From: a virus
IMG/VR virus record: IMGVR_UViG_3300005288_000008
Location: 1-42,727 of that record
Direction: 5' to 3' (one strand)
Length of the DNA: 42,727 nt
The notes beneath the pieces were generated by a model. The model saw only the letters and a list, made by a program, of their open reading frames with translations, had not been told where the DNA came from and made no database searches. The first letter of the stretch is position 1; every line of letters begins with the position of its first letter. Both the position numbers and the translations under genes were made by a program. Positions 16,832 to 42,727 of the stretch are shown one piece after another.

Positions 16832-17965
16832 TCAGGACTCCAGGGATTTCTTGAGGCGGGCACTCAGGCTGTTTTCGTCAGCCTTGCTGTCACCGAAGGT
16901 TTGATATTCGCCACCGGATTTCTTCAGCAGCTTGAAGGCGACGGACAGCTCGGAGTCGCTGAACTTCTGCGAACCATGCTCGACGGCCAGTGCGTCACGC
17001 ATCAGTTGCGCGGTCGACTTGTCGGCGAAGCTGTAGGTTTCCGGCAGAATGGTTCGCGCTTTGTCGATGACGGAGGCGTGAACCTTGACGGCATCACCAA
17101 TCGCGGCAGCGATCTTGTCGGCGAACTTCTTGCGCAGAACCTTGCGGGCCGAGTCGGTAACCTTGACCGGATCGCCACCGGCAGCGTCGGCGCTTTCGTC
17201 CATCAGCTTGTCGGCATCTTCGTCGGTCATCACCGGAAGATCTTCGACAACCGCTTCAGCAGCAGGAGCCTCGACGCCGGCTTCGGTGGCGGCAGCCATG
17301 ATTTCCTGAAGCGCCGGCAACAGCTCGGCCAGCTTATCAGCAGGCACGTTTTTGATCGCTTCCGGCAGGCCAGCGGCCAGCTCGACGATCTGTGAAAGAC
17401 TCAAAGAGCCGTCGGCGTCACAGAACGCCTTATGCAACTTCTTCGGCATGGTAGCCTCCGGGTTTGGTTTTCGGTCGATGAAGCGGCAGCCAGAACCGCA
17501 GCGGCCAGAGTCAACAGTAGCAAGATGGGTCGGCACAAGGTCGCGCTGTTCGAAGTCCCATTTGTCATGGGGAACCAGGCGGCCTTCGTAGCCAAGAGAT
17601 AATTGATTTTTGCCGCCCTCGATTTCGGCCAGCATGTCGTCGTCGAGGAACAGCTTGTTCTGGATAGCCAGGGTTGAACTGGTCGACTCATCGAACGCAT
17701 CGATAAAGGACGCTGATTCAACGCGGCTTGGAATGTCAGCAGGCTCGGTGCCTGGCTCGATATGATCGCCGATGACCGGGATACCTGGCATTTGCGAAAC
17801 AAGGCTGGCGATGGTGGCAGGCGAGCGGTAGACGGTGAAGATCTTGTCTGGCGGCTCTTGGCCGATCTCGCTACCCAGGTACTCCAGCACGCCGTCGCGA
17901 ACACTCACAGCCGTCCGAAGACTGCCGTCGTAGGTTGCCACGTCGATGAACTTGAGCTTTTCCAT
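16832..17965 (-). CDS. Prohead protease/scaffold protein (DUF2213-like, 377 aa from ATG 17965)
   Basis: ORF track frame. Preferred start MEKLKFIDVATYDGSLRT... The N-domain motif VYRSPATIASLVSQMPGIPVIGDHI resembles DUF2213. C-terminal Ala/Glu/Asp-rich helical half looks scaffold-like. Confidence 0.55.
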   Translation of the reverse strand: MEKLKFIDVATYDGSLRTAVSVRDGVLEYLGSEIGQEPPDKIFTVYRSPATIASLVSQMPGIPVIGDHIEPGTEPADIPSRVESASFIDAFDESTSSTLAIQNKLFLDDDMLAEIEGGKNQLSLGYEGRLVPHDKWDFEQRDLVPTHLATVDSGRCGSGCRFIDRKPNPEATMPKKLHKAFCDADGSLSLSQIVELAAGLPEAIKNVPADKLAELLPALQEIMAAATEAGVEAPAAEAVVEDLPVMTDEDADKLMDESADAAGGDPVKVTDSARKVLRKKFADKIAAAIGDAVKVHASVIDKARTILPETYSFADKSTAQLMRDALAVEHGSQKFSDSELSVAFKLLKKSGGEYQTFGDSKADENSLSARLKKSLES

Positions 17966-17993
17966 TATCCAGCCTTGGCACGAATCTTGCCGA

Positions 17994-18022
17994 ATTGTAA
18001 ACCCTGATTGATGGCAAAGCAA
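17994..18022 (-). promoter_or_regulatory. Sigma70-like promoter TTGCTT-N17-TACAAT upstream of protease/scaffold gene
   Basis: -35 at 18017-18022 and -10 at 17994-17999 on the minus strand. Lies directly after the terminator at 18052-18078 and about 29 nt before ATG 17965. Confidence 0.5.
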
Positions 18023-18051
18023 ATATTGTGCCGAGGGGAATTGCTGGCATG

Positions 18052-18078
18052 AAAAAGCCCGCGCATTGGCGGGCTTTT
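18052..18078 (-). terminator. Intrinsic (bidirectional) terminator AGCCCGC-N6-GCGGGCT with flanking T/A runs
   Basis: Minus strand reads AAAAGCCCGCCAATGCGCGGGCTTTTTC. Placed inside the head-gene arm after two micro-ORFs. Confidence 0.7.
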
Positions 18079-18110
18079 AATCCAGGAATTGTTGTTTTTG
18101 GGCGGGACTA

Positions 18111-18254
18111 TCAGCGCCAGAACACTGAAAGCCCCTTTCTAGAACGCCATCGTTCACGGTGCGTCCGCGCTGGATCGGTTGGCAGTCGAACATCATTAGG
18201 CGGTTCTGGCCGCACATAACTCAGCGCTGCGCCGATCAGGATTATCATCAACAT
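18111..18254 (-). CDS. Possible micro-ORF (47 aa, hydrophobic N-terminus MLMIILIGAALSYV)
   Basis: Manual translation, below the ORF-track cutoff. Weak ribosome-binding site. Ends just before the terminator. Confidence 0.2.
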   Translation of the reverse strand: MLMIILIGAALSYVRPEPPNDVRLPTDPARTHRERWRSRKGLSVFWR

Positions 18255-18294
18255 TCGATTATCCAGTTAAGGGGATTGAGGTGGGCGGGGTCGG

Positions 18295-18438
18295 TTAGCG
18301 AACCAAGTACATAACAACCCAACGACCGTCACTATCCTGCTCGACATCTACCCATTTGACTTTGGTCGGGCACAGGCACGATGCGAATCCATCAGCCTGC
18401 TCTTTGGTGCGAAAAGAAGTGAAGGTCATCGGGTTCAT
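18295..18438 (-). CDS. Micro-ORF (47 aa) MNPMTFTSFRTKEQADGFASCLCPTKVKWVDVEQDSDGRWVVMYLVR
   Basis: Manual translation, below the ORF-track cutoff. GGAG lies 9 nt upstream of the ATG. First ORF after promoter cassette P2. Confidence 0.4.
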   Translation of the reverse strand: MNPMTFTSFRTKEQADGFASCLCPTKVKWVDVEQDSDGRWVVMYLVR

Positions 18439-18472: not shown

Positions 18473-18501
18473 ATCCTCTCACGACATAATAACTATGTCA
18501 A
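18473..18501 (-). promoter_or_regulatory. Promoter cassette P2: TTGACA-TAGTTATTATGTCGTGA-GAGGAT
   Basis: -35 at 18496-18501, 17-bp spacer. The TGA stop of the collagen-like gene (18498-18500) lies inside the -35 hexamer. Confidence 0.55.
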
Positions 18502-19418
18502 CGCTCAATAACAATTATTTGCGCAGCCGAACCAACAACCGGAACCGTCGCGCCTAACAGTACCTCTAGTCCGAGCAAGGTAACGACGTTCCGCTGATTG
18601 AGCTGAAGCGTGAAGCCCGTAGCCGTGCTGGAAACCAGCGTCCAAACCTGGCTGGCCACTGCTGGTGGCGGCGGCTGAACGTTCGGCGCCTGCGAGAATA
18701 CCGTCGGGTACGTCACAATGATCTGCCCTGCCGCGCTCGTGGTGCCGGTATAGGTTTCGAGGCGCTTGCTGATGCCCGATGGCCCTTGCGGCCCCGTTGC
18801 ACCTGTCGGCCCTTGAATCCCCTGAATACCTTGAGCACCTGTCGCGCCGGTTAATCCCTGCGGCCCGGTAGCGCCCTGGATTCCCTGCGCACCCGTATCG
18901 CCCTTTACGCCTTGCGGGCCTGTCGCACCAGTAAGGCCAATCGGGCCTTGAGGGCCTGGAACTGTACTCGCCGCCCCAGTTGCTCCCGTGGCGCCAGTCA
19001 GTCCCTGGATACCTTGCGGCCCCTGAGATCCAGTCGCACCAGTATTTCCGGTATCGCCTTTGACGCCCTGGATTCCTTGAGGCCCAGCGGCTCCCGTCAG
19101 ACCCGTGTCGCCCTTTTCGCCTTTTGCGCCAGCAGGGCCAGCTTCTCCCTGTACCCCTTGAGGGCCTTGCGGGCCAGCTAGAACGGTCGAGCTAAGAACT
19201 CCGGAGCTGATCTGCAACCCTTGGCCGACAGTAAAGAACTGCGGCAGAACCGTTACGCCGTTGAATCCGAGGATGCCATTGGCGCCACCAGCAGGAATGG
19301 TGAGGGTGCGACTCAGCGTTCCGGTATCAGTGGCGTTACGCTGATTCATCAACAAATCGTTGGCAGCCCCCAGCGCAAGGCTCGGCAGCAGTAGTGCGAG
19401 AGCAATCAGCTTTTTCAT
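18498..19418 (-). CDS. Secreted collagen-like repeat protein (306 aa) with Sec-type signal peptide and beta-rich C-terminal domain
   Basis: ORF track. N-terminus MKKLIALALLLPSLALG/AAND. 43 Gly-X-Y triplets in two blocks (23 + 20) split by STVP. The C-terminal about 90 aa (...IIVTYPTVFSQAPNV...TGFTLQL...) resembles fibre-tip/lectin-like domains. Confidence 0.85.
   Translation of the reverse strand: MKKLIALALLLPSLALGAANDLLMNQRNATDTGTLSRTLTIPAGGANGILGFNGVTVLPQFFTVGQGLQISSGVLSSTVLAGPQGPQGVQGEAGPAGAKGEKGDTGLTGAAGPQGIQGVKGDTGNTGATGSQGPQGIQGLTGATGATGAASTVPGPQGPIGLTGATGPQGVKGDTGAQGIQGATGPQGLTGATGAQGIQGIQGPTGATGPQGPSGISKRLETYTGTTSAAGQIIVTYPTVFSQAPNVQPPPPAVASQVWTLVSSTATGFTLQLNQRNVVTLLGLEVLLGATVPVVGSAAQIIVIER
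18774..19175 (-). repeat. Collagen-like Gly-X-Y coding repeat region (9-bp periodic degenerate repeats)
   Basis: Residues 82-215 of the 18498-19418 product: GPQGPQGVQGEAGPAGAKGEKGDTG...GPTGATGPQGPSG. Confidence 0.85.
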
Positions 19419-19789
19419 GATGTGGCAACCCTTGCAATGATCTTGTCGGTAGTCGAGACCGTGTTGAATACCACGAGGTCATTGACGTTGAGCGATACGA
19501 CGTTGTTGGCAACTTCTACGCCGACATCCGATGAAGTGACGGTGAGTTGGGTGATGGCCTGAATCGCGAAGATGAAGAAGCGCTGGCCGGCCTTGATGCC
19601 TGGCGAAAGGATGAGCTGCAAGTCGGCAATGGTTGCCGCCGGTGACAGCACGACATTGACCACAAGCGCATCGGTCGCAGGAATTTGGATGGTCTCCCCT
19701 GAGGCTGGAGAGAACTCAAACTCGGCAGGCGTCATGCCCGCCGACTCGCTTGCCATCATCCCCCAGGGCCAAACGAAAGGAGTGATCAT
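19415..19789 (-). CDS. Hypothetical protein (124 aa)
   Basis: ORF track. ATGA-type overlaps with both neighbours. No motif recognised. Confidence 0.5.
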   Translation of the reverse strand: MITPFVWPWGMMASESAGMTPAEFEFSPASGETIQIPATDALVVNVVLSPAATIADLQLILSPGIKAGQRFFIFAIQAITQLTVTSSDVGVEVANNVVSLNVNDLVVFNTVSTTDKIIARVATS

Positions 19790-20082
19790 TCGACCACCTC
19801 CTGTAGGCCGCCCAGCAAGACCGCAGCGTTGCCACGGATCCAGGCGGAATTCGCTTTGATACGAACGCCACCACCTGGCGGAATCTCCCAGCCGTACATC
19901 GCATCGGTTGGCGGCTGATCACCCTCATAGGCGACGATGCGCGTACCACTGCGATTGCAGCAAATGACATCAGTACCAGGCGCAAACCCAGTCACCGCGT
20001 AGAAATCGTGCCAAACCGCAGGCGCCAGTGGCAAATCCGGCTTCATGACCATTTGCAAACTCCTTGTCGCTTCCGGCGACAT
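19786..20082 (-). CDS. Hypothetical protein (98 aa)
   Basis: ORF track. ATG 20082 has AAGGA 5 nt upstream. No motif recognised. Confidence 0.5.
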   Translation of the reverse strand: MSPEATRSLQMVMKPDLPLAPAVWHDFYAVTGFAPGTDVICCNRSGTRIVAYEGDQPPTDAMYGWEIPPGGGVRIKANSAWIRGNAAVLLGGLQEVVE

Positions 20083-20087
20083 AATCC

Positions 20088-20915
20088 TTATTCATCATCA
20101 ACCGTTTCCGGAATGATCATGGTGTACGTGCAGCGGCAATTGTAGTCGGTGCCAGGCAGGAGGTATAGGCCGTCGACGTCGGAATAGAGACCTTCAGCGA
20201 GATCGAACTCCTTGCCTTCACGATCTTCGTGCGACGGACGGACTCGCTCATCACCAGCAGTCTCCCATACAGCCTTGGTGATCCCGAGATTCTGCGCTCG
20301 GATCTTGGTCGTGATCGAGTTGTAGTTCTGCACCTGATTTCGAGCCAAAAACTTGGCATGATTCTTTCTTTCGGATGCGATGTCGTCAAACTGGCTGACG
20401 ATGGTGTCAAGCGATTCGCCCTGGCTCATGGCAAACAGTGTGTTGTTCGTGAACTTCTGAAAGGTGTCGTCGCGCAGGGTTTTGATCCATTGCGAGGTCT
20501 CTGCCATCAGCGCATTGGTGGTCGACTTCATCCCCTCCTTGGCAATCAGGTCGGCAACGTTGATCCCAGTCTTCGCAGCAACCCGCTTGTAGAATTCCTC
20601 CTTGGATTTCTTGTCGAGTTTTCCGAGCGCCTTTTGACTGATGGTGTCAATGCGGTCATCGCTGAATTGCTTGAGGATCGACTTGGCCGCAGCCTTCGAC
20701 AGGCTCAGGAGGATCGACGCGAAGTTGCCGGTTTGGGCGTCAGCAAACTTCTCCACCGTCTTGACCTGGAGCTGGCCCAGCACCTGATTCTGAAATCGCT
20801 TGGCCATCGTATCGACCATGAACTCGATCATGTCGGCCAGCTCGTTTTCGATGCTGCGCGGCGATTTTGGCGCCTTGATTGGTGTCGGCTTTGCGGCGGT
20901 CAGTTGGCGCTTCAT
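20088..20915 (-). CDS. Minor head protein, phage Mu F / SPP1 gp7-like head morphogenesis protein
   Basis: ORF track. The motif ...VWETAGDERVRPSHEDREGKEF...DYNCRCTY is the hallmark of the Mu F-like family. Directly downstream of the portal gene. Confidence 0.8.
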   Translation of the reverse strand: MKRQLTAAKPTPIKAPKSPRSIENELADMIEFMVDTMAKRFQNQVLGQLQVKTVEKFADAQTGNFASILLSLSKAAAKSILKQFSDDRIDTISQKALGKLDKKSKEEFYKRVAAKTGINVADLIAKEGMKSTTNALMAETSQWIKTLRDDTFQKFTNNTLFAMSQGESLDTIVSQFDDIASERKNHAKFLARNQVQNYNSITTKIRAQNLGITKAVWETAGDERVRPSHEDREGKEFDLAEGLYSDVDGLYLLPGTDYNCRCTYTMIIPETVDDE

Positions 20916-24839: not shown

Positions 24840-24916
24840 TGGCGCGAATGAAGGGTCTCGAACCCTCGGCCTCTTGCGTGACAGGCAAGCGCTCTAACCA
24901 TCTGAGCTACATCCGC
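24840..24916 (-). tRNA. trnD: tRNA-Asp (anticodon GTC), CCA encoded
   Basis: Manual cloverleaf of GCGGATG-TA-GCTC-AGATGGTTA-GAGC-G-CTTGC-CTGTCAC-GCAAG-AGGCC-GAGGG-TTCGAGA-CCCTT-CATTCGC-G-CCA. 7-bp acceptor stem, loop CT-GTC-AC. Confidence 0.85.
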
Positions 24917-41243: not shown

Positions 41244-41834
41244 TCACTTATCCTGCTTCGTCACCGTCCCAGGCTGCGTGGCGAAGTCGGTAACAATCGC
41301 GTTCTGCTTCTGCGATTCCTTGGTCATGCCGAACCAGAACCCCATGACTTCCTTGGTCATGCCCAGCCACAGGCCAAGCACGGTGCCGACAGTCAGCGCC
41401 GCAGTCGGATCCTTGATCACCTCATTGGCCCAGCCGATCAGCACAGCCACAACCACGAACAGAGAGCCGCCCAGCATGATGAAGGTCAACGCTGGACGCA
41501 CGATGTCGTTTGGCTGTTTCGCTGCCAACTGCCGCGCACTGTCACGATCTGCCGCCTCTGCCGCATATTGTGCGCCGGCAGCCTGAAGGCGAACTGTTTC
41601 AGCCTGAACGGCCAGCTTCTCCAGCTCGACACGCGCAGTCAGTTGCAACTCTTGTACGCGAACCATGGCGTCAGGATTACCAGAAAGCGCCTTGTTGACC
41701 GCATCCGGATCATTTGGCACATTAAGCGCGCTCGCAACCAAAGCTCCTACAGCGGCGCCAGCGGGGCCGCCAAGCAGAGTTCCAACGATTGGCGCGGCTC
41801 GCCCAACTATTCCGCCGATGTCTGACCAGTTCAT
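41244..41834 (-). CDS. 3TM-holin-family-like membrane protein (196 aa), last gene of lysis cluster
   Basis: ORF track. Gly/Ala-rich N-terminus, then a coiled-coil, then IVRPALTFIMLGGSLFVVVAVLIGW plus further hydrophobic segments. Resembles the GTA-type 3TM holin layout. 4-nt overlap with the endolysin gene. Confidence 0.5.
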   Translation of the reverse strand: MNWSDIGGIVGRAAPIVGTLLGGPAGAAVGALVASALNVPNDPDAVNKALSGNPDAMVRVQELQLTARVELEKLAVQAETVRLQAAGAQYAAEAADRDSARQLAAKQPNDIVRPALTFIMLGGSLFVVVAVLIGWANEVIKDPTAALTVGTVLGLWLGMTKEVMGFWFGMTKESQKQNAIVTDFATQPGTVTKQDK

Positions 41835-42301
41835 TCGTCATGCTCCAGGTTGTCTGCGATTCGGCGAGCCCATCCTTTTCCGAAGGTTGGCCAGGTCGAC
41901 AGGTCGGTCATGAATCGCAAGCGGATTGCGCTGTATTTGGCTGGCGTAACCAGCGATGCAGCCGACAGGGTTCGCGGCCCAATGATGCCGTCCTCTGCCA
42001 CTCCAGCAGCGCGCTGCAACCACTTGATGGCTTGAGCTGGCCCGCTATTCACGGCCGCATCAAATACGTGGAATCGCAGGGCTTCTGGTAGCTGGTCGGC
42101 CTTGATCGGCTTCCAGTAATCCGCCTCGTAAATGCCAATGGCCATCGACAGTGGGAAGTTGCGCATGTCGCCTTGGAAGCCATGCGCCCGCGCTACTCGC
42201 TGAGTGATGCCGTAATTGGTGGCGCCGCCAGGATCTTTGGGGTGATCGACGTAACCGCCCTCATTTCCCAGGAGTCGTTTGAGCGATTGCGTCAAGTTCA
42301 T
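41831..42301 (-). CDS. Endolysin: glycoside hydrolase family 108 domain + PG_binding_3 domain (156 aa)
   Basis: ORF track. NEGGYVDHPKDPGGATNYGITQ is the GH108 signature. The C-terminus ...DGIIGPRTL...FGKGWARRI fits the associated peptidoglycan-binding domain. Confidence 0.85.
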   Translation of the reverse strand: MNLTQSLKRLLGNEGGYVDHPKDPGGATNYGITQRVARAHGFQGDMRNFPLSMAIGIYEADYWKPIKADQLPEALRFHVFDAAVNSGPAQAIKWLQRAAGVAEDGIIGPRTLSAASLVTPAKYSAIRLRFMTDLSTWPTFGKGWARRIADNLEHDE

Positions 42302-42636
42302 TTGGCATCACCATTCTGAAAATAGAACATCTTCGACACGTTGCCCTGCGCCCTGCTGAGCAGCACGAACAGAATGGCAAAGGTCAGCGTATTGTAGAAT
42401 GACACGACAGGCCAATTGCCGTACATGAGCACGCGACCAACGATACTTAGCCACTGCTGGGCGCAGAGAGAGGCCAAGCCAAATGCGCATGCGCTGGGCA
42501 ATAATCGATATGTGGCATCACCACGACGAAACTTGAAAGCGATCTGGTAGGCGCATCCACCACAGAACATGGCCTGCATGGTGGCGACAATAGGCACCCA
42601 GTAAAAGTCGATTATCCACACTATTCCGCCGATCAT
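42298..42636 (-). CDS. Membrane protein (112 aa, 3-4 hydrophobic segments), lysis cluster
   Basis: ORF track. MIGGIVWIIDFYWVPIVATMQAMFCGGCAY... ATGA overlaps with the wrap-around holin-like gene upstream and the endolysin downstream. Confidence 0.5.
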   Translation of the reverse strand: MIGGIVWIIDFYWVPIVATMQAMFCGGCAYQIAFKFRRGDATYRLLPSACAFGLASLCAQQWLSIVGRVLMYGNWPVVSFYNTLTFAILFVLLSRAQGNVSKMFYFQNGDAK

Positions 42637-42727
42637 TCAGTTTTTCCTTTCCCGAAGAACCGGCCAAAAATGGTTTTAAGCCATTCAGGCCACGTCCCAG
42701 TTTGAAAGGCCTCAACAACGCTGATGC
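42633..42727 (-). CDS. 3' end (last 31 codons + TGA) of the wrap-around holin-like gene listed at 1-379
   Basis: Same frame as the left-end copy. ...EAFQTGTWPEWLKTIFGRFFGKGKTE-stop, TGA at 42633-42635. Confidence 0.55.
   Translation of the reverse strand, partial: ISVVEAFQTGTWPEWLKTIFGRFFGKGKTE
42638..42727. repeat. Right copy of exact 90-bp end duplication (identical to 1-90)
   Basis: Direct comparison of the two window ends. Confidence 0.9.

Follow-up and report, generated by a model that had tools for sequence, protein, structure and literature searches.

A mobile gene cassette of Pseudomonas phages encoding a fibre-like protein with a predicted export signal and a predicted gp10-like partner

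Tail-fibre-like phage proteins are assumed to be cytoplasmic virion parts, and we know of no virion fibre of a tailed phage that carries a cleavable Sec signal. Among the collagen-like proteins of phages, SPP1 gp12 binds to the capsid. In phages of Klebsiella and in Ackermannviridae, secondary receptor-binding proteins attach by their conserved N-terminus to a branching fold of the gp10 type (PMC6872550, PMC13352976). Here we describe gene C, located at 18498..19418 on the minus strand of the viral sequence IMGVR_UViG_3300005288_000008, which was analysed over its whole length of 42,727 nucleotides (the window). Gene C encodes a protein built of fibre modules behind a predicted Sec signal peptide, and it is the last gene of a cassette of three genes, A, B, and C, that recurs in Pseudomonas phages. 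We tentatively favour the reading that C is exported and acts on the cell envelope as an accessory fibre, for example in receptor masking, in exclusion or in the protection of the progeny from debris.

The open reading frame of 306 aa that had originally been predicted is present on the minus strand with an ATG start. Its start codon overlaps the stop codon of the upstream 124-aa open reading frame B (ATGA). In a search of 5.8 billion proteins about 24 full-length homologues were found, all of them metagenomic, and the ratio of nonsynonymous to synonymous substitutions (dN/dS) relative to the nearest relative is 0.067, indicating purifying selection. Because of these homologues and this ratio C is a real gene. 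The pre-protein consists of a signal peptide, an N-domain, a collagen stalk and a lectin-like knob, and its sequence ends with AAQIIVIER.

The N-terminus of C reads MKK, then LIALALLLPSLAL, then A-L-G|A-A-N-D. The signal peptide comprises residues 1-17 (MKKLIALALLLPSLALG; 19368..19418, minus strand), and cleavage by signal peptidase I is predicted between G17 and A18 from rule-based features and from the family statistics given below. The 11-residue Kyte-Doolittle maximum is 2.6 and falls on residues 4-14. A basic n-region, a hydrophobic h-region, a helix breaker and small residues at positions -3 and -1 are all present, in agreement with the rules for Sec and signal peptidase I. The originally proposed Sec signal peptide is hence borne out by rule-based analysis, with canonical n-, h- and c-regions in C that are kept across the family. 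Neither A nor B carries such a leader.

For the family statistics the leaders of 71 members were aligned on the N-D motif. Lys or Arg occurs in the n-region of 70 of the 71 leaders, the median of the longest uncharged run is 14 residues, and the median leader length is 18 aa. Position -6 is Pro or Ser in 44/71 and position -2 is bulky. Ala is found at -3 in 41 leaders, while another 22 have Val, Cys, Ser, Ile or Thr there; Ala or Gly occupies -1 in 60/71. Overall, the leader is kept in about 95% of the 106 family clusters described below, with divergent sequence and canonical signal-peptide properties. As the properties rather than the sequence are conserved, the leader appears to be a true signal peptide and not a docking or trimerisation helix, from which neither a helix breaker at -6 nor an A-x-A pattern would be expected. 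Its retention in so many clusters makes export very likely and suggests that export itself is selected; for the window protein we regard export as likely.

Other interpretations of the N-terminus were considered and rejected. A lipoprotein signal requires a lipobox, and C contains no Cys. The twin arginine of a Tat signal is absent. With about 13 residues including a Pro, the h-region is too short for the membrane anchor of a signal-anchor protein. A conserved internal start was not found in C either; the only internal Met (M24) is not conserved.

The N-domain (residues 18-81, AANDLLMNQRN...GQGLQISSGVLSS; 19176..19367, minus strand) is the conserved module that follows the leader. In the alignment of the homologues D21, Q26, R27, R37, P42, P59, G65, and L75 are invariant. 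This part had been described as a Gly-rich segment of 60 residues, a description that we do not retain: residues 20-81 contain 9 Gly in 62 residues (14.5%), and the segment is better called a conserved beta-rich domain. A phmmer search with residues 18-82 against 1.84 billion representative proteins gave 106 clusters (50% identity or less). In essentially all of them the N-domain starts at residue 18-27 behind a leader, and it is never internal. A profile search of the N-domain against PDB sequences returned nothing significant. One 2356-aa protein (P0197) with 15 N-domain matches is an SLH-anchored immunoglobulin-repeat protein, and we took its matches as repeat-level similarity and not as homology.

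Leader and N-domain (NDLLxNQRN...GQGLQLSGGVLSS) are common to all aligned homologues, and a Pfam collagen match was obtained for only 11/100 family members, with no other Pfam domain recurring. Judged from these sequences, it is the leader together with the N-domain that defines the family, and collagen is one optional stalk. Among the homologues the length of the collagen part differs by whole triplets; P0023 and P0025 have other fibre repeats in its place. The distal part is exchanged as well. In P0016, P0022, and P0026 a larger head of the 'IPAGKxxRIRT' type replaces the C-terminal knob, and over the last 90 residues of the wider family 72 members have a 'PAGxxxRxRT' head, 31 members have the knob of the window type and a few belong to minor groups (11 tail groups overall). 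In the PHROG collection phrog_31472 spans residues 1-274 of C and possibly corresponds to the C family; it has no annotated function.

The stalk of the window protein consists of two runs of Gly-X-Y triplets, in which X is chiefly Pro or Ala and Y chiefly Gln or Thr. The first segment (residues 82-150; 18969..19175, minus strand) has 23 triplets. It is followed by the interruption S-T-V-P (residues 151-154; 18957..18968, minus strand), which is kept in relatives and is a possible hinge between the segments. The second segment (residues 155-217; 18768..18956, minus strand) has 21 triplets. The stalk and its split at STVP are hence as originally predicted, with the correction that the second run had been counted as 20 triplets and gains one when the final triplet G-I-S is included. 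The Pfam family Collagen (PF01391) matches C with 70 bits (E=1.5e-19), far beyond chance and above the gathering threshold of 27.2.

Outside the repeats C could not be connected to described families. In tblastn searches full-length C gave only collagen-repeat matches in tail-fibre genes, covering at most 52% of the query, and the C-terminal domain alone gave no match at E<=10. Pfam, NCBIfam, and PADLOC gave no match for A, B, the N-domain or the C-terminal domain; a known defence system is therefore not indicated. An NCBIfam match to HisXaaSer (E=0.01) was rejected as repeat noise, and the HXS system (PMC13128918) is a conceptual analogue only.

The structural comparisons rest on monomer AlphaFold2 models and Foldseek searches with modest E-values. 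The model of C was built on 23 homologues. It gives six short strands for the N-domain with a predicted local distance difference test (pLDDT) of 70-84, leaves the collagen part unmodelled, as expected in a monomer model, and shows the last 89 residues as a confident beta-sandwich (pLDDT 85-94). This C-terminal knob (residues 218-306; 18501..18767, minus strand) resembles in fold the R1 and R2 pyocin tail fibres (6cxb, 6cl6), the receptor-binding domain of the cyanophage Pam1 tailspike (7eea), gp53 of Acinetobacter phage AP22 (4mtm) and also the H-type lectins HPA, SLL-2, and discoidin II (listed entries 2ccv, 4q56, 3wmp). These matches have probabilities of 0.9-1.0, TM values against the target of 0.35-0.56, E-values of about 1e-2 and sequence identities of 8-17%. 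Among predicted viral structures (BFVD) the knob matches a protein of the P. syringae phage KIL2 (root-mean-square deviation 1.9 Å, 32% identity), gp25 of phage AF and a protein named "H-type lectin domain". The Pfam family H_lectin (PF09458) does not match residues 218-306 at E<=10. An end of about 90 beta-rich residues resembling a fibre tip or lectin had been predicted, and the model agrees with it; by fold alone the comparisons support a lectin-like or fibre-tip knob.

C thus has the modules of a fibre, i.e., stalk repeats, through which it matches PHROG tail-fibre families, and a distal knob of pyocin and phage fibre fold. Its relatives carry the fibre motifs 'LAGYGITDA' and 'TVTTDAQGRVT'. 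No paralogy of C to the tail fibres of its own phage was found, and as this similarity is absent the idea of a decoy for the same receptor cannot be supported by sequence.

Gene B (19415..19789, minus strand) encodes a protein of 124 aa without signal peptide and is coupled to C by an ATGA overlap. The B family comprises 67 proteins, the length varies between 121 and 133 aa across loci, and in the loci examined B is fused to nothing. Profile searches gave no sequence-level match in Pfam, NCBIfam, PADLOC or among PDB sequences. With B of the window tblastn found nothing; relatives were reached only with divergent B queries. The AlphaFold2 model of B is all-beta and confident (pLDDT 86.6). Its top match in Foldseek is the capsid spike of Pa223 (9ny6, E=6.5e-4); further matches are the T4 baseplate chain 5iv5_AC (602 residues, TMq 0.52), which we take to be gp10, the N-terminal XD region of CBA120 TSP4 (7rej, TMq 0.53) and the KP1 baseplate (9f4b). 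Over all these matches the probability is 0.84-1.0, E ranges from 6.5e-4 to 0.27 and TMq from 0.43 to 0.53, a similarity at the fold level only. We conclude that B is predicted to have a gp10-like (XD/branching) adaptor fold.

Gene A (19786..20082, minus strand; the gene caller starts at 20052) is coupled to B by another ATGA overlap and encodes a small beta protein of 88-98 aa. It corresponds to phrog_4770, likewise a family without annotated function, and hidden Markov model (HMM) matches were found in at least 19 loci. The profile search gave no informative match for A, the best one among PDB sequences being a cupin-like protein (E=0.21). In comparison with the closest relative dN/dS is 0.20 for A and 0.25 for B, which indicates purifying selection on both genes.

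Homologues of B are also present in cultured phages. Orisa03_00037 (PP179327, locus L008 5537-5941; 134 aa) is labelled 5'/3'-nucleotidase SurE in GenBank and matches the B family with E=7e-49 in hmmsearch. The B copies of Orisa01, Orisa02, and Orimi01 bear the same label, which, going by this homology, is probably wrong in all these phages. The other cassette genes of cultured phages are labelled "hypothetical" in GenBank.

With HMMs built from the three families, about 25 distinct loci were found in which A, B, and C follow each other in the same order, the stop codon of one gene mostly overlapping the start codon of the next. In 24 of 25 loci B immediately precedes C. Many metagenomic neighbours received their context labels by BLAST to a small labelled set, and with these labels the cassette occupies at least eight different contexts. 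In the window and in L013 it lies between the Mu F-like gene and the protease gene on the same strand. It is inverted in L003, L016, and L018, between the portal and Mu F-like genes, in L005, between the protease and Mu F-like genes, and in L021, L023, and L024, near the large terminase gene. In L014 it follows the major capsid gene. In Pseudomonas putida phage AF (gp23-gp25) as well as in L004, L010, L011, L017, L019, L026, and L027 it closes the late operon, behind the genes for endolysin and spanin. In Orionvirus phages of P. syringae the cassette lacks A and is flanked by two spike-like enzymes (Orisa03_00037/38), and in a prophage of P. tructae it precedes a T7-fibre-N/GDSL spike.

The carriers are E217-like myoviruses, lambda-like siphoviruses and epsilon15/P22-like podoviruses, including prophages, and all identifiable hosts are Pseudomonas. 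As these virions are of three unrelated architectures, no one attachment site on the virion can be assigned to the N-domain. The junction of the Mu F-like and protease genes is intact in L003, where the cassette is elsewhere, so that the insertion in the window is specific to its lineage. The GC content of the cassette is not anomalous, and only GC3 is slightly lower. From its variable location and orientation we deduce that A-B-C is a mobile, moron-type accessory cassette and that its place in the head module is incidental. In the window the neighbouring genes confirm that C lies between the Mu F-like and the protease gene, as had been noted; as a property of the gene, however, the head-module location did not hold up. 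In the window phage the cassette is, as judged from the overlap of the open reading frames, read together with the late head genes.

The position of gene C in the head module of the window phage is what would be expected of a capsid decoration fibre like SPP1 gp12 or Pa223 gp52, with an N-terminus serving as trimerisation or capsid-insertion helix. Collagen-like capsid binders exist, as SPP1 gp12 demonstrates, the cassette of L014 directly follows the major capsid gene, and a capsid spike is the top structural match of B. Yet the head-module position is not conserved, the N-terminus shows the pattern of a signal peptide (helix breaker at -6, A-x-A), a cement protein is already present in the phage, and the same N-domain occurs together with unrelated capsids. 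We regard a capsid fibre as highly improbable.

The cassette is also found in Pseudomonas prophages, and in some genomes its inverted placement implies separate transcription. This would suit an adhesin or matrix protein of lysogenic conversion, which might be secreted, for instance by a type II system, and promote aggregation, biofilm formation or host attachment of the lysogen. The layout, in which a signal peptide and an N-domain are followed by a collagen part of varying length and a globular head, is that of Legionella Lcl, streptococcal Scl, and Bacillus BclA, and the best NCBIfam matches of C are Lcl (NF046116), SclA (NF038330), and SclB (NF038329). But these matches reach 89.5, 86.1, and 76.4 bits compared to cut-offs of 500, 400, and 325, and they cover the repeats alone. 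C has no LPXTG motif, lipobox or beta-barrel anchor, and most family members have no collagen. Moreover, the lytic phage AF carries the cassette, in the window it is cotranscribed with late genes and no integrase was seen, and the role of A and B would be left unexplained. An adhesin of the lysogen is quite unlikely on this balance.

As an exported accessory fibre of the cell envelope, our preferred reading, C could act as follows. The cassette would be transcribed late with the head genes. The pre-protein would enter the Sec pathway and be cut after A-L-G17, exposing A-A-N-D; this predicted step is strengthened by the conservation within the family and by variants starting at this point. Following the chemistry of collagen, the mature protein of 27.8 kDa would trimerise through the N-domain and a two-segment collagen helix of about 38 nm hinged at STVP. 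The three lectin-like knobs, if their fold is a guide, may bind an envelope glycan or a surface ligand. By analogy to Llp of T5 and Cor of phi80 one may speculate that the receptor would be masked against secondary phages or tailocins, or that the progeny would be kept off debris. Equally speculatively, A and B would remain in the cytoplasm as dedicated helpers for folding or export of C. The fibre would have been assembled from recycled modules of receptor-binding proteins, in a cassette that moves among Pseudomonas phages. The originally predicted exported, trimeric, envelope-acting protein remains the leading interpretation in this respect, and export is likely; what has to be added is a virion route as its main rival. 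That an exported protein cannot join the virion by the normal route was too strong a statement considering the gp10-like adaptor fold of B and the intact cassettes in which C lacks a signal peptide.

Several observations weigh against an action at the envelope. First, the fold predicted for B is known from receptor-binding complexes of virions (PMC6872550). Second, no route across the outer membrane is evident for C. Third, about 5 of the 106 clusters appear to lack the signal peptide, and two of these cases were verified: in L030 (2548-3336) C starts with M-K-N-D-L-L and in L031 (609-1283) with M-A-G-N-D-I-L. In both loci the cassette is intact, in-frame stops are found just upstream of C, and B ends where C begins. 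These starts lie essentially at the predicted mature N-terminus and corroborate the cleavage site at the sequence level. It also follows from these cassettes that a cytoplasmic form of C is viable and that export is not strictly required for the family. Fourth, spike-like proteins of the SGNH/GDSL esterase and pectate-lyase types beside or inside the cassette fit a cluster of receptor-binding genes. Finally, scans for consensus promoters and terminators around the cassette in four genomes gave no more than the shuffled expectation, so that the cassette is not marked as an independent unit.

The esterase-type proteins recur at the cassette. Orisa03_00036 (L008 3738-5522) and the 698-aa spike of P. 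tructae (L009 11474-13570) are of this type, and in L020 (6280-7563) a 427-aa SGNH/GDSL esterase-type protein is inserted between A and B. None of the neighbours checked has a signal peptide. This recurrence suggests a link to enzymes that modify surface polysaccharides.

Other loci deviate further from the usual composition. In the P. syringae KIL phages a homologue of A (hmmsearch E=1.3e-11) is coupled by ATGA to a fibre of 281 aa that has the same C-terminal domain (E=3.8e-16), lacks signal peptide, N-domain and B, and is located with A just upstream of the large terminase gene. In vB_PsyM_KIL2 (KU130127, genes 0051/0052) the pair is found at L028 18795-19906. From the absence of both B and the N-domain it follows that A goes with the fibre body and B with the N-domain. 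L025 (7932-8885), from a phage of lower GC content, encodes neither A nor B but has a C-type protein in which signal peptide and N-domain are followed by a stalk of 'GIASGATANDTDANLK' repeats; its gene is flanked by tail-fibre/Collar-domain genes on one side and by the holin and endolysin genes on the other. The fibre can therefore exist without its usual partners.

There is a tension between the signal peptide, which points to an exit from the cytoplasm, and the predicted fold of B, the strict association between B and the N-domain, the fibre modules and the frequent spike neighbours, which point to a receptor-binding complex. The latter features would be explained if C were a portable accessory receptor-binding fibre of the virion, with B as a stand-alone gp10-like adaptor, A as helper or anchor and the N-domain as docking module. 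Forms without signal peptide would then be assembled in the cytoplasm; forms with signal peptide would be stored as periplasmic trimers and join the virion only once the envelope is opened by holin and endolysin ('arming at lysis'). The matches of B to T4 gp10, CBA120 TSP4 and the Pa223 spike agree with this role, as gp10-like domains dock the N-termini of secondary receptor-binding proteins (PMC6872550, PMC13352976). B and the N-domain occur together in 24/25 loci in ATGA-coupled genes, the leaderless C proteins of intact cassettes start at the mature N-terminus, and C is made solely of fibre modules with swappable heads. Furthermore, the cassette adjoins tail-fibre, tailspike or esterase genes in Orisa03, P. 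tructae, L020, and L025.

The KIL fibre is by its position ORF42 of KIL3 and KIL5, a protein without signal peptide and with the same C-terminal domain, which was detected in phage preparations by electrospray ionization tandem mass spectrometry with 2 and 4 peptides. These preparations were not CsCl-purified and contained polymerases and ligases, and the 2-4 peptides compare to 13-20 for the true tail fibres. The detection shows expression and not virion membership.

A virion fibre would have a cytoplasmic N-terminal attachment domain and a gene in the tail module, whereas C has a signal peptide, its gene lies in the head module here, and its position is variable. As stated above, a virion fibre with a cleavable Sec signal is without known precedent, and the retention of the signal in about 95% of the family indicates that export itself is selected. 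A single adaptor would have to fit the virions of myo-, sipho-, and podoviruses, the cassette is inverted within the head modules of several genomes, and C shares no similarity with the tail fibre of its own phage. Since B has no signal peptide and C is exported, no complex of B and C would form before lysis; the two proteins would share one compartment during assembly only in the rare variants without signal peptide. A virion fibre appears somewhat unlikely to us. An assembly in two compartments may be considered as well, in which the exported C would wait in the periplasm as a folded trimer, A and B would remain cytoplasmic, on the virion or close to it, and the partners would meet only at lysis; this would make the cassette an accessory plug-in host-recognition module, armed by lysis and transferable among myo-, sipho-, and podoviruses, a proposal that we regard as unlikely.

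The window carries an exact direct repeat of 90 bp at both ends (1-90 and 42638-42727). The repeat shows it to be a circular assembly of metagenomic origin, about 42.6 kb long and apparently a complete phage genome. The phage is an E217-like myovirus related to the Orionvirus phages of P. syringae, and near-identical DNA to the head region was not found among 50,697 phage records. The head module has the order small and large terminase, portal, Mu F-like gene (20088-20915), two small open reading frames, gene C, an open reading frame of 47 aa, the DUF2213/Pa193_gp24 protease gene (16832-17965), the cement protein and the major capsid protein, and it is followed by an E217-like contractile tail module. 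The 47-aa open reading frame (18295..18438, minus strand) 3' of C is of uncertain status: it has no family matches and is not a cassette member in other loci. A noncoding gap of about 330 nt (17966-18294) separates it from the protease gene. The gap contains two weak sigma-70-like matches and no terminator, and it may be a promoter site for the protease, cement and capsid genes. Where the late and early regions adjoin, a single gene for tRNA-Asp (GTC) occupies 24840-24916 (minus strand), immediately upstream of the small terminase gene. The lysis region (41244-42636 and 750-1115) contains two genes of holin families (Phage_holin_8 and Phage_holin_3_7), a GH108 endolysin and, at the position expected for a spanin, a 196-aa protein without assigned function; a canonical Rz/Rz1 pair was not recognised.

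Literature searches aimed at tail-fibre-like proteins with signal peptide, at the A-B-C cassette and at the virion proteomics of carrier phages found neither the cassette nor such a protein described. What is new here is that a fibre or accessory gene of phages has an export signal conserved in its family and a partner of its own with a predicted gp10-like fold; C is a member of the collagen-repeat superfamily, and the system is not categorically new. The fibre-like family with the conserved Sec signal comprises more than 100 clusters in Pseudomonas phages and prophages, and it is present in the cultured phages AF, Orisa and Orimi. Should C act at the envelope, it would represent a new type of accessory system, a lectin-like shield or exclusion device, with consequences for competition between phages, for sensitivity to tailocins and for the composition of phage cocktails against Pseudomonas. 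Should it be found on virions, it would reveal a new route of assembly, and phage engineering could gain a host-range module that is portable by nature. In either case three 'hypothetical' gene families, one of them mislabelled SurE in GenBank, gain a testable context.

Among the described systems, Legionella Lcl, Streptococcus Scl1/Scl2 and Bacillus BclA share with C the signal peptide, the N-domain, the variable Gly-X-Y stalk, the head and the logic of a trimeric fibre. The similarity is, however, confined to the repeats; C has no cell-wall or membrane anchor, it belongs to a three-gene phage cassette, and its collagen is optional. The collagen-like tail fibres of E. coli O157:H7 prophages (PMC3368898) and the collagen-like minor tail proteins of mycobacteriophages likewise have Gly-X-Y stalks in phage fibres and give the best tblastn and PHROG matches. 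These proteins, in contrast to C, have no signal peptide and are encoded in tail modules, and only their repeats match, over at most 45% of the query. SPP1 gp12 and Pa223 gp52 (bioRxiv 10.1101/2025.06.11.659172) are trimeric fibres or spikes encoded among head genes, and the TNF-fold knob of Pa223 gp52 is like the alternative head of the C family. They differ in that they lack a signal peptide, bind the capsid through an N-terminal arm and have a fixed gene position, whereas C is variable in position and not tied to one capsid.

The branched receptor-binding complexes (TSP2/TSP4 of CBA120 and RBP1/RBP2 of the Klebsiella KP32 type; PMC6872550, PMC13352976) correspond to the cassette in the predicted gp10-like fold of B, in the N-terminal module and swappable head of C and in the adjacent, coupled genes. 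Sequence homology was not detected, though, and B is a free-standing protein of 124 aa rather than a domain of an anchored tailspike, C has a Sec signal, and the cassette moves between unrelated virion types. The R-type pyocin knobs and the H-type lectins (HPA, SLL-2, discoidin II) have no Pfam H_lectin counterpart in C and are only 8-17% identical to it; the likeness lies in the predicted fold of the last 89 residues. Llp of T5, Cor of phi80 and N15, and Lom and Bor of lambda are small lipoproteins or beta-barrels and not fibres, while C has neither Cys nor lipobox. They are nevertheless exported phage proteins whose genes lie at the borders of the tail-fibre and lysis genes and are mobile in the manner of morons, and we propose them as functional analogues of C.

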